A program made the position numbers and the translations under genes. A stretch of 18,162 bases of DNA from a virus (Duplodnaviria > Heunggongvirae > Uroviricota > Caudoviricetes), in IMG/VR virus record IMGVR_UViG_2526164594_000016, positions 1 to 18,162 of that record, one strand, 5' to 3'. The notes under the pieces were generated by a model, which saw nothing but the letters and a program-made list of their open reading frames with translations, was not told the DNA's origin and ran no database searches. Position 1 is the first letter of the stretch; every line of letters begins with the position of its first letter. Shown piece by piece: positions 118 through 15,048 of this stretch.

Positions 118-1968
118 TTATGCTGCCGGTGCATTTATCTCCAGCACCAGACTTTCTATCTCAACGCCATACGCTGCATTTTTTGTAACATCCGTCAGCG
201 TCAGCGCATTCAGTCCCAGTGTCAGACTGTCTTTTATAACCTGGAATGCCGGGCCAGCCACTCCATTCAGTTTCGGAGTAACCGTGGCACTGCCGGCGGT
301 GAACACCAGCTCCAGCGTCTGCCAGTCGTTACCGTAATCGCCGAACTCCCCCAGCTTCGTGTTTCCGGCTTTCCTGTGATGCATCAGATTCACTCTGCCG
401 TCAGTGGTCTGAGTGAAGTACGACATCAGGAACGGATTACCGGTACCCGTCATCGCCACACCATCAGGAACGGGAGCGTCCGTATACAGATAAATCCCCA
501 GCCCGAACTGATTGTTGGTCAGTGCGCCTGACAGGCGGAACTTACAGGTCAGTCTGCCGCCCTGTGTCAGCAGGGTAATTGCGTCATCCACCGGATGCGT
601 CAGGGACCAGGTTTTATTGCTCTGCCTGGTGATCTTAAATACACCATCTGACAACTGAATTCCGCCATCCTTAATGCTCCAGCCCTGCGCAGCAGCCTCT
701 CCGGCTGCCGGCAGCAGGGAGATTGTGCGAACGGACGTATCTGCAGACGGACCCGATGGCGTGTTGCCGCCGGGCGAGGGTTTGATTTCCGGTGCCTTAC
801 CACTGATGAAGGCTGAGGTGCGCCCGGCTGCGTTCAGAATAGCGGTTGCCAGACGATCCGGAATAATGCTCCTGCGCGCCCATGAACTGAAATGTGTCGG
901 GCAGTTTGATGATACCTGGTTTCCATTCGTTCTCGATGCCGCACCGTAATATCCTGATGCCGGAATATCCGGATCTTCTGCCGGCGCGTTAGTGGCGGTA
1001 TTGACGCCGTTACCGTCTGTCATGAAGGGCACAAAATAAACGCCCTCACTCTCCCTGTTTTTATACCCGCCGTACACGGTGTCGTACTGGGTAGCGTATG
1101 TATTTTTCCAGTAATACGTCGTGTCACCACAAATCCACGGCACATCTGCAGCACTGCCACCATGGCACTGCGCGTTAAACACGGAGAGGTCAGCACGAAA
1201 CTGTGTCAGCATGGCTGTAAACAGCGCAGGTTGCTGTGCGTGGGTGGCGGCGCTCATGTCAAACTCTCCCTGCATCCAGCACACCGCCAGCAACACATTT
1301 TTCGGGTTCTTCTGTAATGCAGCTTTGGTGCGCGCAATCAGGTCCTGATATAACGGTTTACCCACACCCCAGCGCGCCGAATCCTGGCTGGCCCCCGTGG
1401 ACTCGCTGAATATCCCCTCCGCGCCCTGGGTAAATGCCGAACCACCACGACAGCATGGTACCAGCAGGATCCCCGCGTTATTCGGGATATACGGGAGCAG
1501 TTTTTTGGCAATATGTAACCCCTGGCCGACACAGCCGTACTGCCCTTTGCTCAGGTCTGCCTTCGGATGATTCAGCGTACTCATATCCTGCACATCATGC
1601 AGGCAGTGGTCGGCCGGAATAATATCGTTATATCTGCAGGCAGCCCCACCCGGCGTCACTGTACTGCGGCGCGCCAGCTGTTTAATGCGCGGATCCGGAG
1701 CATCGTATGAATCCGGCAGCGGAAGCCCTTCACCGTAAGCCATGGCATTGGACTGCCCGGCCAGTACGATGACGTAGTACCAATCCGGCTCAGTTGCACC
1801 ACTGACCACCACATCACCTTCTGCTGTAATCGCCTGCATCAGGGTATAAGGGGTTATGGCCACCGGACTACCAAACGGCTGCCAGCCCTCTTTCAGTTTG
1901 TGTGTCAGCTTTTCCGCAAGGTCTGACGGCGACGCCGCCCTGACAACATCATAATGTTTAATCGACAT
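118..1968 (-). CDS. Prophage NanS-p-type sialate O-acetylesterase (N-terminal DUF1737-like, central SGNH/DUF303 esterase with GQSN motif, C-terminal carbohydrate-binding-like region)
   Basis: 616-aa ORF; motif VIVLAGQSNAMAYGEG typical of the sialate O-acetylesterase family; ATG with GGGAG Shine-Dalgarno 8 nt upstream; position between Q/tRNAs and where lysis genes would follow, as in Stx-type phages. Confidence 0.7.
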   Translation of the reverse strand: MSIKHYDVVRAASPSDLAEKLTHKLKEGWQPFGSPVAITPYTLMQAITAEGDVVVSGATEPDWYYVIVLAGQSNAMAYGEGLPLPDSYDAPDPRIKQLARRSTVTPGGAACRYNDIIPADHCLHDVQDMSTLNHPKADLSKGQYGCVGQGLHIAKKLLPYIPNNAGILLVPCCRGGSAFTQGAEGIFSESTGASQDSARWGVGKPLYQDLIARTKAALQKNPKNVLLAVCWMQGEFDMSAATHAQQPALFTAMLTQFRADLSVFNAQCHGGSAADVPWICGDTTYYWKNTYATQYDTVYGGYKNRESEGVYFVPFMTDGNGVNTATNAPAEDPDIPASGYYGAASRTNGNQVSSNCPTHFSSWARRSIIPDRLATAILNAAGRTSAFISGKAPEIKPSPGGNTPSGPSADTSVRTISLLPAAGEAAAQGWSIKDGGIQLSDGVFKITRQSNKTWSLTHPVDDAITLLTQGGRLTCKFRLSGALTNNQFGLGIYLYTDAPVPDGVAMTGTGNPFLMSYFTQTTDGRVNLMHHRKAGNTKLGEFGDYGNDWQTLELVFTAGSATVTPKLNGVAGPAFQVIKDSLTLGLNALTLTDVTKNAAYGVEIESLVLEINAPAA

Positions 1969-2054: not shown

Positions 2055-2082
2055 AAAAAAAAGCCGCGCCATGCGCAGCCGG
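2055..2082 (-). terminator. Intrinsic terminator (GC-rich stem with one G-U pair, followed by U8 on the minus strand)
   Basis: plus-strand A8 at 2055-2062 followed by gccgcgcc..cgcagccgg inverted repeat. Confidence 0.4.
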
Positions 2083-2281: not shown

Positions 2282-2449
2282 TCAAGCATTATGCAGGCTG
2301 TTTCTTTTTATCACCGGCCACAGCAATACCACAATGCCGCAGACCAGCACCCCATCCGCCAGCACCGACATGATTCTGCTGGTGAAATCCACCATCACCA
2401 CCAGAAACAGCAGGAGTGCAGCCACAGCCAGGCGCAGTTTTACCGTCAC
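2282..2449 (-). CDS. Small hydrophobic peptide (about 55 aa from GTG, or 37 aa from internal ATG at 2395), predicted single transmembrane helix
   Basis: ORF not in supplied track (<60 aa); GTG start overlaps the TerB-like stop (GTGA); sequence VTVKLRLAVAALLLFLVVMVDFTSRIMSVLADGVLVCGIVVLLWPVIKRNSLHNA by manual translation. Confidence 0.3.
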   Translation of the reverse strand: MTVKLRLAVAALLLFLVVMVDFTSRIMSVLADGVLVCGIVVLLWPVIKRNSLHNA

Positions 2450-2907
2450 AGGTGATTCTCCAGACGAAGACCCAGAACACCGGCAATCTCTTCCAGCACC
2501 TTGCGCTCTTCCGGCTCAATTTCGCCGTCTGCCTCCGCAATGGCCACCGCCACATCCAGCACATCTTCCGCTTCACGCGTATCGTGTTTCACATCCTCGA
2601 TCTCACGTAACGCCGCACGACGACCAGTTTTAAAGTTCGTATCCAGCTGACCGATAATGGTTGCGCTAATCGCATTAATTTCTGACGTAAACGCGGACAG
2701 CGCAGGCTGATTACGCAGTACCTGTTCGATCTTCGCTTTCTCGGATGCCTCACATTCACCATCTGCACAGGCCACCAGGTATGCGGCGTTAATCACCACC
2801 TGTGCCAGATCGCGTTTTTCAAACTTTTTAATTTCCGTTGCCGCTCTGCGGGCTTTTTTTACCAAAAATACCAAACATCGTGACGTTCCTTTGGGTGGGT
2901 GAGCCAA
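2446..2907 (-). CDS. TerB-domain (tellurite-resistance TerB-like) protein; start uncertain (TTG at 2907, or ATG at 2878 in another frame joined through an A7 tract)
   Basis: 153-aa ORF with TerB-like signature (AAYLVACADGE..., AIAEADGEIEPEE); no in-frame ATG anywhere in the ORF. Confidence 0.6.
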   Translation of the reverse strand: MAHPPKGTSRCLVFLVKKARRAATEIKKFEKRDLAQVVINAAYLVACADGECEASEKAKIEQVLRNQPALSAFTSEINAISATIIGQLDTNFKTGRRAALREIEDVKHDTREAEDVLDVAVAIAEADGEIEPEERKVLEEIAGVLGLRLENHL

Positions 2908-3010: not shown

Positions 3011-3034
3011 AAAAAAGGCCCGCCGAAGCGAGCC
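3011..3034 (-). terminator. Intrinsic terminator downstream of tRNA-Arg (stem GGCUCGC/GCGGGCC with UUCG tetraloop, then U6)
   Basis: plus-strand aaaaaa ggcccgc cgaa gcgagcc at 3011-3034. Confidence 0.5.
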
Positions 3035-3047
3035 TGGAAAATAAGTG

Positions 3048-3124
3048 TGGCGCGTTGTAGTGGAGTCGAACCACTGACCGATTGCTTAGAAGGCAATTGC
3101 TCTGTCCGGCTGAGCTAACAACGC
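3048..3124 (-). tRNA. tRNA-Arg (anticodon UCU)
   Basis: Manual fold of reverse complement: acceptor GCGUUGU/ACAACGC, D stem GCUC/GAGC, anticodon stem AUUGC/GCAAU with loop CUUCUAA, T arm AGUGG-UUCGACU-CCACU, discriminator G, CCA encoded. Confidence 0.85.
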
Positions 3125-3224
3125 AGAATACCGATAATGGACCGCCATCGGGGACCCGGCCCCGCACCAACAACCCTGTTATGGTGTCGTCTGCTCTTCC
3201 TGATAAGCTAATGGCGGTTTGTGA

Positions 3225-3300
3225 TGGTGGCCCTTGCTGGATTTGAACCAGCGACCTGGCGATTATGAGTCGCTCGCTCTCACCACTGAGCTAAAGGGCC
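3225..3300 (-). tRNA. tRNA-Ile2 type (anticodon CAU, ileX/ileZ-like; formally could be tRNA-Met)
   Basis: Manual fold: acceptor GGCCCUU/AAGGGCC, anticodon loop CUCAUAA, T loop GGUUCAAAUCC, CCA encoded; closely resembles E. coli ileX from memory. Confidence 0.8.
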
Positions 3301-3328
3301 GAGCCAAAAAATAATAATCAGATGAAAA

Positions 3329-4042
3329 TCAATAATCAAGCCCTTGCCTGGATACATATCTGTCTGGCGGGAAGCCATAATAGCGGTGAAATACAGAAAT
3401 AAAGTAGGACCGGCTTGAATAACCACATTTTTCTGCTACAGCCTGTCCATATCCATACCGGGAACATAACATATTTACAGCAACACGCATCCGCTCTTCC
3501 AGCAACAAGCGACTGAACATGCCCCCTTCATTTTTCAGTTTTGTCTTTAACAAACTCTCACTCATATGCAACTGTAGAGCAATCGCACCAAGCGTCCAGC
3601 TTGCTGATATATCTGTCTGAATTATCGCCCTGACTTTGGCACTTATGCTGGATAAACATCCACTTAAAAACAATGACATCCGTTCATCTGTTTCAAACAG
3701 AGACAGGCAGGCCATCATAAGAAACATATCCGTGACCTCTCCGGAAAATCCCTGGCTGGTAATTAAAGCCGCAGCCAACGCAGGATTGTTGGGTTCCAGC
3801 AACAGGTAAAGCGGAATGTCAGTCAGACGAGTCCTCGTCAGCTTATGCTGACTTTCCAGATATTGACTTACGACGGATTCGCTTATATCGACAATTTTAA
3901 CTTTGCCATAATGCATAAGGAAAAGCTCCCTGATGCATTTGGTGGCCAGAACGACTGAGCCTGGCTTAAGTGACAACGTATCCTTTTCAAGAAAAATATT
4001 AATTGGGGAGCAAACCATGATAACTGAACAGACAACAGCCAT
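3329..4042 (-). CDS. AraC/XylS-family transcriptional regulator (prophage moron; resembles the prophage-encoded PsrA/PsrB/PatE class in general architecture)
   Basis: 237-aa ORF; C-terminal double HTH typical of AraC family (…GYSSRSYFISVFHRYYGFPP…); no clear Shine-Dalgarno at the first ATG, so start uncertain. Confidence 0.75.
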   Translation of the reverse strand: MAVVCSVIMVCSPINIFLEKDTLSLKPGSVVLATKCIRELFLMHYGKVKIVDISESVVSQYLESQHKLTRTRLTDIPLYLLLEPNNPALAAALITSQGFSGEVTDMFLMMACLSLFETDERMSLFLSGCLSSISAKVRAIIQTDISASWTLGAIALQLHMSESLLKTKLKNEGGMFSRLLLEERMRVAVNMLCSRYGYGQAVAEKCGYSSRSYFISVFHRYYGFPPDRYVSRQGLDY

Positions 4043-4599: not shown

Positions 4600-5166
4600 T
4601 CAAAAAGCAATAACTTTTTTCTCTATACCAAAAGCCATAACCATTGGTTTGTACAAAATAAATTCTGCCACCTTTAGCCAATGCTCAATGCGTCTTTCAC
4701 AGGTTCTTAAACTCCATTCCGGATGTGCATCATTCAGCAATTCAGCCATTTTGCGCTTAGTCATCCCCCGCCCCACATAACGCTGACTCAGAACATTGAG
4801 CAGCCCGGGATAACCTGCCAGTACTTCACCAATAACCCTATCGATTATTAACGCCTCTGAATCGGTACAATGTGCCAGCCAGCTTTTTTGATTGCCGTTG
4901 ATCATATCCCGCAAAAAAGCCTCAAGTTCAGGTTTGTCCAGACCCGCTTTTTTCATCCTCCGGAGCGCCTCGTTAATTGCCGTTTTTGTCAGCTTTTTAG
5001 AGGTCAGTAATTGGTTGAACATATTTCCCGTCTTACCGTCGCCAATATACGACCAACGCCCCCACATACGCAGTTTCCCCTGGATCCAGACACTTTCCAG
5101 CGTTTTCAGGCGTAAATGCTCACCGCTTTTGCCTGTAATTTCCGGGTATATCATATTTATGCTCAC
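4600..5166 (-). CDS. Putative late-gene antiterminator Q-like protein (non-lambda Q type); first ATG at 5154, ORF opens with GTG at 5166
   Basis: 188-aa ORF directly downstream of rusA and upstream of terminator, tRNAs and late-region morons; assignment by synteny, not by recognised motif. Confidence 0.5.
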   Translation of the reverse strand: MSINMIYPEITGKSGEHLRLKTLESVWIQGKLRMWGRWSYIGDGKTGNMFNQLLTSKKLTKTAINEALRRMKKAGLDKPELEAFLRDMINGNQKSWLAHCTDSEALIIDRVIGEVLAGYPGLLNVLSQRYVGRGMTKRKMAELLNDAHPEWSLRTCERRIEHWLKVAEFILYKPMVMAFGIEKKVIAF

Positions 5167-7443: not shown

Positions 7444-7599
7444 TTACTTCTCAGATTCGTAGTCTACGAAGACAGCGACCTCCGTCTGACCGGTTCGGAT
7501 TCGCACCTCGCAGAGGTCTTTCCTCGTTACCAGTGCCGTCACTATGACGGTTAAACAGATGACGATCAGGGCGATTAACATCGCCTTTTGCTGCTTCAT
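7444..7599 (-). CDS. hok: Hok/Gef-family type I toxin (HokD-like, 51 aa)
   Basis: MKQQKAMLIALIVICLTVIVTALVTRKDLCEVRIRTGQTEVAVFVDYESEK matches the Hok family; AAGGAG upstream; in-frame upstream extension to 7656 is in the usual mok position. Confidence 0.85.
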   Translation of the reverse strand: MKQQKAMLIALIVICLTVIVTALVTRKDLCEVRIRTGQTEVAVFVDYESEK

Positions 7600-7889
7600 A
7601 GCCTGCTTCTCCTTGCCTTTCGGCACGTAAGAGGCTAACCTACATGTGTTCAGCATGGATTGAGCCTCAGATTAATGTTAAGCGTCTTGCAGGACGCGTA
7701 ATGTTAACTGGGGCTTTTCTCTATCTGCCGTTGGTGTTCATGCCCGAGGCAGATAGCCTCAAGCACCCGCAGCAATTCTACTTAACTATCCTTTTCCCGC
7801 AAACCGTTTTTATCCCCAGCGGCAAATCGAATACACCACCAGCGCCACCGCCATCGCAATTCCTACCGTTGTGAATGCTTCAGGCCAGG

Positions 7890-14989: not shown

Positions 14990-15048
14990 TTTCTGGTGAC
15001 GTTTGGCGGTATCAGTTTTACTCCGTGGCTGCTCTGCCGCCCTTTTTA
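14990..15048 (+). ncRNA. dicF: DicF small RNA (ftsZ-targeting sRNA of the dicB operon)
   Basis: ttctggtgacgtttggcggtatcagttttactccgtggctgctctgccgccc followed by ttttt matches DicF from memory with about one mismatch; lies just upstream of dicB as in Qin. Confidence 0.65.

Follow-up and report, generated by a model that had tools for sequence, protein, structure and literature searches.

A described relative of the locus discussed here is the tciA-tciB-tciC module of phage P1 (P1_gp074-076). TciA of P1 is a TerB-domain protein and TciB is a small DUF3927 peptide whose gene starts at the tciA stop. The function of the P1 module is assigned by homology only, and the 'tellurite resistance' label on Tci proteins is one of homology too. 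The literature we found on TciA, TciB and DUF3927 consists of such labels, a CRISPRi study of P1 and expression changes in an hfq mutant, and we found no experiment on a Tci protein in it. By CRISPRi the P1 tci genes are non-essential, and they are dispensable for lytic growth. RefSeq gives the two genes of our locus the names 'tellurite resistance TerB family protein' and 'DUF3927 family protein', and does so in hundreds of E. coli genomes. When both proteins are intact we take them to have a putative membrane-associated stress function of the TerB type. Other described relatives are TerB of the ter operon (Klebsiella, 2JXU) and the TerB-like protein 2H5N. A short membrane peptide partner and an N-terminal MFG..KK are specific to the Tci group as against the TerB of ter operons.

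The DNA that we analysed, called the window below, is the whole of an 18,162-nucleotide stretch of the IMG/VR virus record IMGVR_UViG_2526164594_000016. We assign it to the defective lambdoid prophages of O157:H7-type E. coli. Over 17.9 kb it shares 99.8% identity with one such prophage from O157:H7. The orthologous O157:H7 prophage has a truncated integrase and a truncated recE. It is important to keep this in mind, because gene decay is to be expected in a defective prophage. The gene order is a Q-like antiterminator (DUF1133), an AraC-family regulator, two tRNA genes, tciA, tciB, an sRNA of the STnc100 family, and nanS-p. The original prediction, which was made from the letters of the DNA, placed the pair between the phage tRNAs and nanS-p in the slot that holds stx in Stx phages. 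This is correct, judging from phage phi24B (record H153), where a remnant of stx2A is bordered by matches to the tRNA and nanS-p flanks seen here. In phage phi296, a relative without stx, the slot is empty. The features of the locus are these, in the direction of transcription:

3225-3300, minus strand: phage tRNA gene with a CAT anticodon, called Met by ARAGORN; RefSeq calls the same gene Ile.
3048-3124, minus strand: phage tRNA-Arg (TCT), the upstream neighbour of tciA.
3016-3035, minus strand: terminator-like hairpin with a T run, between tRNA-Arg and tciA.
2886-2891, minus strand: AAGGAA Shine-Dalgarno sequence, 7 nt before the ATG at 2876-2878 and 11 nt before the TTG at 2874.
2446-2878, minus strand: tciA-like TerB-domain gene, a frameshifted allele, with matches in Pfam, PHROG and PDB; relative to the ancestral ATG its body lies in the +1 frame, as far as the TGA at 2446-2448.
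2828-2878, minus strand: 16 codons of residual frame from the ancestral ATG, reading MFGIFGKKSPQSGNGN and then TAA at 2828-2830.
2872-2874, minus strand: TTG start chosen by RefSeq/PGAP for the 142-aa model WP_001303509.1, which begins MVFLVKKARR.
2854-2860, minus strand: A7 tract, where one A has been added to the ancestral GGT AAA AAA GCC (A6).
2740-2742, minus strand: GAG codon of the family-invariant Glu46, intact as GAG in the window and TAG in most other A7 copies.
2282-2449, minus strand: tciB-like DUF3927 gene of 55 aa, whose GTG start overlaps the tciA stop (GTGA, 2446-2449).
2062-2080, minus strand: second terminator-like hairpin, again followed by a T run; it lies past both tciB and the STnc100 match.
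118-1968, minus strand: esterase of the nanS-p type, with DUF1737, SASA and DUF6645 domains, the downstream neighbour.

By sequence the locus can be recognized as the known phage pair first named in P1, tciA for the TerB-domain protein and tciB for the small membrane peptide. The likeness to P1 is extensive. Both TciA proteins have about 141-143 aa, the N-terminus M-[FL]-G-..-KKK and 40% identity over their full length; both TciB peptides have 54-55 aa, the common motif VDFTS.I.SVL.DG.LV and a start at the tciA stop; and both modules adjoin phage tRNA genes. There are differences too. The window has no homologue of P1 tciC (35 codons), and the 31-codon ORF that follows tciB (2194-2289) is unrelated to it. 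The tciA of the window is frameshifted, and it belongs to a lambdoid late operon. The three-gene layout of P1 is found again in a relative 51% identical to our copy, and in a Pantoea prophage the TerB gene stands alone, downstream of a Q antiterminator gene. In contrast to ter-operon TerB, the TerB of the window stands alone, without the partners terZACDE.

Closer relatives are found in the O157:H7 prophages themselves. The RefSeq proteins WP_001303509.1 and WP_000216636.1 (DUF3927) from these prophages are identical to the products of the window, and an 801-nt region of strain 4276 is 99.9% identical to it and has the same neighbours. The coding sequence of WP_001303509.1 is 3127-3555 of an O157:H7 locus (L001 in our set), which corresponds to 2874-2446 of the window, and its exact product is our database protein P0121. 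RefSeq models this gene as intact from the TTG, whereas our comparison indicates a frameshifted allele. There are also in-frame sisters, WP_001302123.1 and WP_000466957.1 (MFGIFKKKT...), which are the same gene in the same slot with the same tciB partner. The body of WP_001302123.1 is identical to the copy in the window. Unlike the copy in the window, the sisters have a 5' end in frame and are under strong purifying selection.

The TerB domain is confirmed by Pfam PF05099, which the ORF matches over its residues 41-148 (52.4 bits against a cut-off of 24.4, 7.7e-14). When the tract is read with six A's, the product matches the PHROG family phrog_632, 'tellurite resistance', over residues 1-143 of 143 (2.5e-68), and only this reading aligned with PHROG 632 from end to end. 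The nearest solved structure by sequence is the PDB entry for TerB, 2JXU (E=2.9e-7, residues 15-137). An AlphaFold2 model of an in-frame relative with 97% identity is all-helical, with seven helices and a pLDDT of 87.6. Its top Foldseek match in the PDB is the TerB-like protein 2H5N (PG1108), with a probability of 1.0 and a TM score of 0.55-0.61 at a weak E-value of 0.026; globin matches ranked below it and we regard them as noise. TciA is an all-helical TerB-domain protein of about 143 aa with the conserved N-terminus MFG.F.KK. A search of the PADLOC defence profiles gave only PDC-S48 for the TerB protein (E=0.006 over 35 residues) and no match for TciB, so these profiles lend no support to a role in phage exclusion or defence.

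The tciB product matches Pfam DUF3927 (PF13064) with 62.3 bits against a cut-off of 25 (4.3e-17) and the 'TciB-like' family phrog_1470 of PHROG (4e-30). A 55-codon ORF with a GTG overlapping the TerB stop had been predicted at this place and is present there; its product was thought to be a single-helix membrane peptide, which is not so, as it has two hydrophobic segments at about residues 5-20 and 26-47. The coupling of the peptide to TerB is real and conserved, since the homology search leads to TciB/DUF3927, which follows tciA in P1 and in the 51%-identical relative. The gene has a GGAG of its own at 2458-2461, 8 nt upstream of the GTG. Of 47 copies from the A7/A6 lineage, 45 keep all 55 codons, and the GGAG is conserved. 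In short, tciB remains intact beside the frameshifted tciA. A tciB-like gene is also present beside a SASA esterase in phages 434 and 2B8 (records H147-H149) and in record H145, all without a match to tciA, so TciB can occur without TciA. Two database proteins of 170-197 aa (P0012 and P0065) have the TerB domain fused to DUF3927 by a frameshift at the GTGA overlap. These fusions are another sign of frequent small indels at the tciA-tciB locus.

It had been suggested that the TerB gene is a moron. A promoter scan from the tRNA terminator to tciA found no site like that of sigma-70 on the minus strand, which leaves a moron with its own promoter without support. The pair is probably transcribed as part of the late operon.

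The problem with this locus is the start of tciA. The TerB-domain ORF, read from the sequence as 2446-2907 on the minus strand, has 153 codons from a TTG at 2907 to the TGA at 2446-2448 and not a single in-frame ATG. The ATG at 2876-2878 is one base out of register with it. If one A is deleted from the A7 tract the reading becomes MFGIFGKKARRAATEIKK..., in which six A's give MFGIFGKK-ARRAATEIKK... and run into the TerB ORF. All of this had been noticed in the original prediction, from the missing ATG and the out-of-frame AAGGAA and ATG to the A7 at 2854-2860 and the MFGIFGKK/ARRAATEIKK join, and all of it holds in the sequence. The A7 run by itself is not unusual, as the window has 10 such runs and 7.6 are expected. 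Its significance comes only from its position.

The position of the ancestral start can be read from the homologues. Twenty of them, 52-96% identical to our copy and found in Klebsiella, Salmonella, Serratia, Pantoea, Enterobacter and jumbo Erwinia phages, have the N-terminus M-[FL]-G-..-KK-A-[RK], and Gly3 and Lys7 are invariant in the alignment of 20 sequences. P1 TciA, at 40% identity, also begins M-[FL]-G-..-KK. The N-terminus MFG.F.KK of the homologues is encoded in the window by the out-of-frame ATG, so the window must have undergone an insertion from A6 to A7. By this comparison the ATG at 2876-2878 is the ancestral start of tciA. A full-length TciA that begins with MFG.F.KK cannot be read from this ATG in the window, where the A7 puts it one base off. 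The idea of a frameshifted gene, one of several left side by side in the original prediction, is thus supported, for every distant homologue begins at the equivalent of the out-of-frame ATG. None of the distant homologues has a start equivalent to the TTG, and the TTG start in RefSeq/PGAP is probably an annotation rescue.

We therefore think it likely that this copy of tciA is an early-stage pseudogene with an ordinary decay lesion and an ORF that is still open by chance, and that it is not a switch. The course of events would have been simple. A single A was inserted into the ancestral GGT AAA AAA GCC, taking the run from A6 to A7. Ribosomes would now load at the AAGGAA and the ATG, make a peptide of 16 residues and terminate. 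The TerB frame could be reached only through the weak TTG, which lies 4 nt past the ATG and 11 nt from the Shine-Dalgarno sequence, or through rare slippage, and little or no TciA protein would be made. Translation of tciB would proceed from the GTG that overlaps the tciA stop.

The in-frame sisters show how alleles are exchanged at this locus. Their 5' end reads GGA ATC TTC AAA AAG AAA ACC, which is in frame and in which the A run is interrupted. We call this the K allele and the frameshifted form the G allele. In strain MD2019EC2705C4 of O157:H7 the same prophage carries tciA in frame. Comparing two O157:H7 strains with the same prophage gives 10 differences over 6.8 kb, 8 of which lie within 18 nt at the 5' end of tciA:

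2853-2870 of the window (3131-3148 of L001, compared with L002): 18-nt patch that swaps the frameshifted G/A7 5' end for the in-frame K sequence.

The mosaic allele with the patch is found in 247 complete genomes. This indicates micro gene conversion between paralogous prophages. Since 8 of the 10 differences fall in the one patch, ON/OFF differences at this locus come from micro gene conversion and slippage in the tract is not involved.

Selection differs between the two lineages. Our sample has 48 copies of the A7/A6 (G) lineage, of which 44 are full-length A7 and 4 are A6, and 75 copies of the in-frame K lineage. The codon for Glu46, a residue invariant in the family, has become TAG in 27 of the 44 full-length A7 copies, though these are not 27 independent losses, as the mutation was one event spread by descent and recombination. 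Among complete E. coli genomes, 576 have the TAG allele, at 961 places altogether and with a maximum of 5 copies in one genome; PGAP flags such copies 'internal stop'. In the whole sample TAG is carried by 29/48 of the G lineage and by 2/75 of the K copies (Fisher p=3e-13). K alleles are intact in 71 of 75 cases, and two of the four exceptions are recombinants with the same TAG.

The substitutions can be compared as well. Of the 8 changes confined to the G lineage, 7 are non-synonymous or nonsense and 1 is synonymous. This pattern, which rests on those 8 changes, is compatible with neutrality and has to be read knowing that recent polymorphism is rich in non-synonymous changes even where a gene is functional. 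The changes confined to the K lineage divide into 13 non-synonymous or nonsense and 60 synonymous (p=1.5e-4). Restricting the K lineage to rare variants, which allows for the time-dependence of dN/dS, gives 10 against 18 (p=0.016), a control that corrects only partially for the non-synonymous excess of recent polymorphism. In-frame tciA alleles are under strong purifying selection, and the A7 lineage looks unconstrained. It shows the three marks by which a pseudogene is known: a lesion has cut off the ancestral start, other disabling mutations are present, and the substitutions fit neutrality. The copy in the window has the first of them alone: it has the frameshift and no TAG, and its ORF is open for 142 codons.

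This last point speaks against a pseudogene and for the likeliest of the alternatives. The gene could be functional from the TTG at 2874, as WP_001303509.1 is annotated by PGAP, if the insertion of an A had merely exchanged the first seven residues for a similar N-terminus, hydrophobic and then basic. The TTG is in the TerB frame and within reach of the AAGGAA, the ORF behind it is open in the window, the allele is very common, and MVFLVKKARR does resemble the native MFGIFGKKARR, in our view by coincidence. However, the invariant Gly3 is lost from this N-terminus, and a better-placed ATG 4 nt upstream competes for ribosomes. Most copies of the lineage have the nonsense codon at Glu46, the private changes are 7 to 1 non-synonymous, and the TTG is used by no distant homologue. 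The original prediction had allowed for a TTG-initiated gene, and the part that stands is that RefSeq does annotate TTG 2874; the relaxed constraint on the A7 lineage speaks against the rest. We consider a functional gene from the TTG unlikely, though some functional protein may be made.

It is less probable still that the A7 tract is a recoding site. On this account slippage of the polymerase (-1 A or +2 A), or a +1 slip of tRNA-Lys on AAA-AAA-A, would give MFGIFGKK-ARRA... in some fraction of the products and keep the level of TciA deliberately low. The geometry fits, because a P-site tRNA on AAA can re-pair one base downstream on AAA with GCC as the next codon, and slippage at A runs can rescue nearby frameshifts. 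But the run here is only 7, and reports of efficient slippage in E. coli usually concern runs of 8-9 or more. Baranov et al. (2005) give frameshift rescue of about 10% at an A8 run and 50% at an A9 run; their examples are of A8 and A9 only, and we found no figure for A7 among them. A programmed shift site should be conserved in homologues, and this one is not: the distant homologues are in frame without the tract, and in the sister allele it is interrupted (AAAAAGAAAA). The frame downstream of the site is also without purifying selection.

A related idea, and one to which we give just as little credence, is that A7 is kept as a throttle on a costly TciA. The out-of-frame ATG would absorb ribosomes, rare starts at the TTG or rare slippage would yield some TciA, tciB would be expressed independently, and the ON state would be regained through gene-conversion patches. 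If this were true, an E. coli genome with many prophages would be a reservoir of switchable accessory alleles. We prefer to see this copy of tciA as an early-stage pseudogene, and the tract counts, taken up next, also belong to that argument.

We searched 5,426 complete E. coli genomes for the exact context of the tract: 549 records have A7, 3 have A6 and no record has A8. In IMG/VR, A7 is present in 41 of 42 contigs. The product called from the TTG is found on at least 993 contigs, against 4 for the A6 product. We are dealing with an old insertion that is stable and widespread. This bears directly on the possibility, raised in the original prediction, that tciA is a phase-variable gene, here understood as a contingency gene switched between ON and OFF when replication slips on the A tract. 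Three A6 copies do exist, in the assemblies CP017249, CP157165 and AP042673, and one of them differs from the assembly of its own parental strain. Two of the three A6 genomes still have the internal stop at Glu46 (TAG), and these copies are hence not ON. The third genome comes from a laboratory strain derived from 86-24, and the parental assembly has A7 together with several other 'frameshifted' phage genes, structural ones among them, which suggests homopolymer errors in the parental assembly. We therefore reject the three as cases of switching, two for their TAG and the third for its disagreement with the assembly of its parent. An 800-nt match (H4) that might have been counted as an A6 allele was rejected too, because it has a different 5' patch.

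In a contingency locus the tract should vary in length among close relatives and the frame should be kept open in OFF alleles. Neither is what we see: the lengths are as given above, and TAG is present in 27/44 A7 copies and in 2/4 A6 copies. The ON/OFF difference at the orthologous locus is the 18-nt conversion patch, and tract length is not its cause. Phase variation is thus unsupported, and we would put its chances very low indeed. Homopolymers are error-prone, but a sequencing or assembly indel in the window, also suggested originally, is refuted by the identical A7 context in the 549 complete genomes, the 41 IMG/VR contigs and the at least 993 contigs of many origins.

What the locus teaches is modest, as the gene pair is already known and catalogued and the lesion is ordinary. 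Its value is partly one of annotation: the very common RefSeq model WP_001303509.1, with its TTG start, is probably a frameshifted tciA allele, and many of its sisters have an additional nonsense codon. The locus also illustrates, cleanly and on a small scale, two processes that are well documented in O157 prophages. One is the decay of an accessory gene after a homopolymer insertion disconnects its start, and the other is the trade of patches, down to about 18 nt in length, between paralogous lambdoid prophages, which can break or repair a gene. The locus raises no new question about Shiga-toxin phages or phage defence, and anyone who wants to study the function of TciA and TciB would do better with the in-frame allele.

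The surroundings of the pair offer a few minor observations. The DUF1133 protein at 4600-5166 (minus strand) also matches Phage_antitermQ with 33.1 bits against a cut-off of 26 and is probably the Q-type antiterminator of the prophage. Between this gene and the tRNA genes, at 3329-4042 (minus strand), lies a gene for a 237-aa regulator of the AraC family (HTH_AraC, HTH_18), which may resemble the PatE/Psr regulators that EHEC prophages encode; in other relatives this position is taken by a DNA methylase or is empty. The only two tRNA genes of the window are separated by a gap of 100 nt (3125-3224, minus strand), whereas many relatives have three closely spaced tRNA genes (Ile, Arg, Arg), so that the window seems to lack the middle tRNA-Arg, through loss or decay. 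The prophage sRNA family STnc100 is matched over its full length at 2105-2277 on the minus strand (Rfam RF02076, 102.7 bits, E=8e-22), directly behind the tciB stop and ahead of the terminator at 2062-2080. Strain EDL933 has 11 copies of STnc100, which are transcribed, and STnc100_10 is listed with the same 'tatgggata' string and with ribosome footprints. A 2026 preprint relates STnc100 to the PasD sRNAs and describes TerB as a conserved neighbour of PasA/PasC. Farther away, a match to the sok antitoxin RNA (7594-7768, minus strand, 113.5 bits) lies beside a Hok/Gef gene and a match to DicF RNA (14991-15042, plus strand, 75 bits) lies near dicB, both typical of this class of defective prophage.
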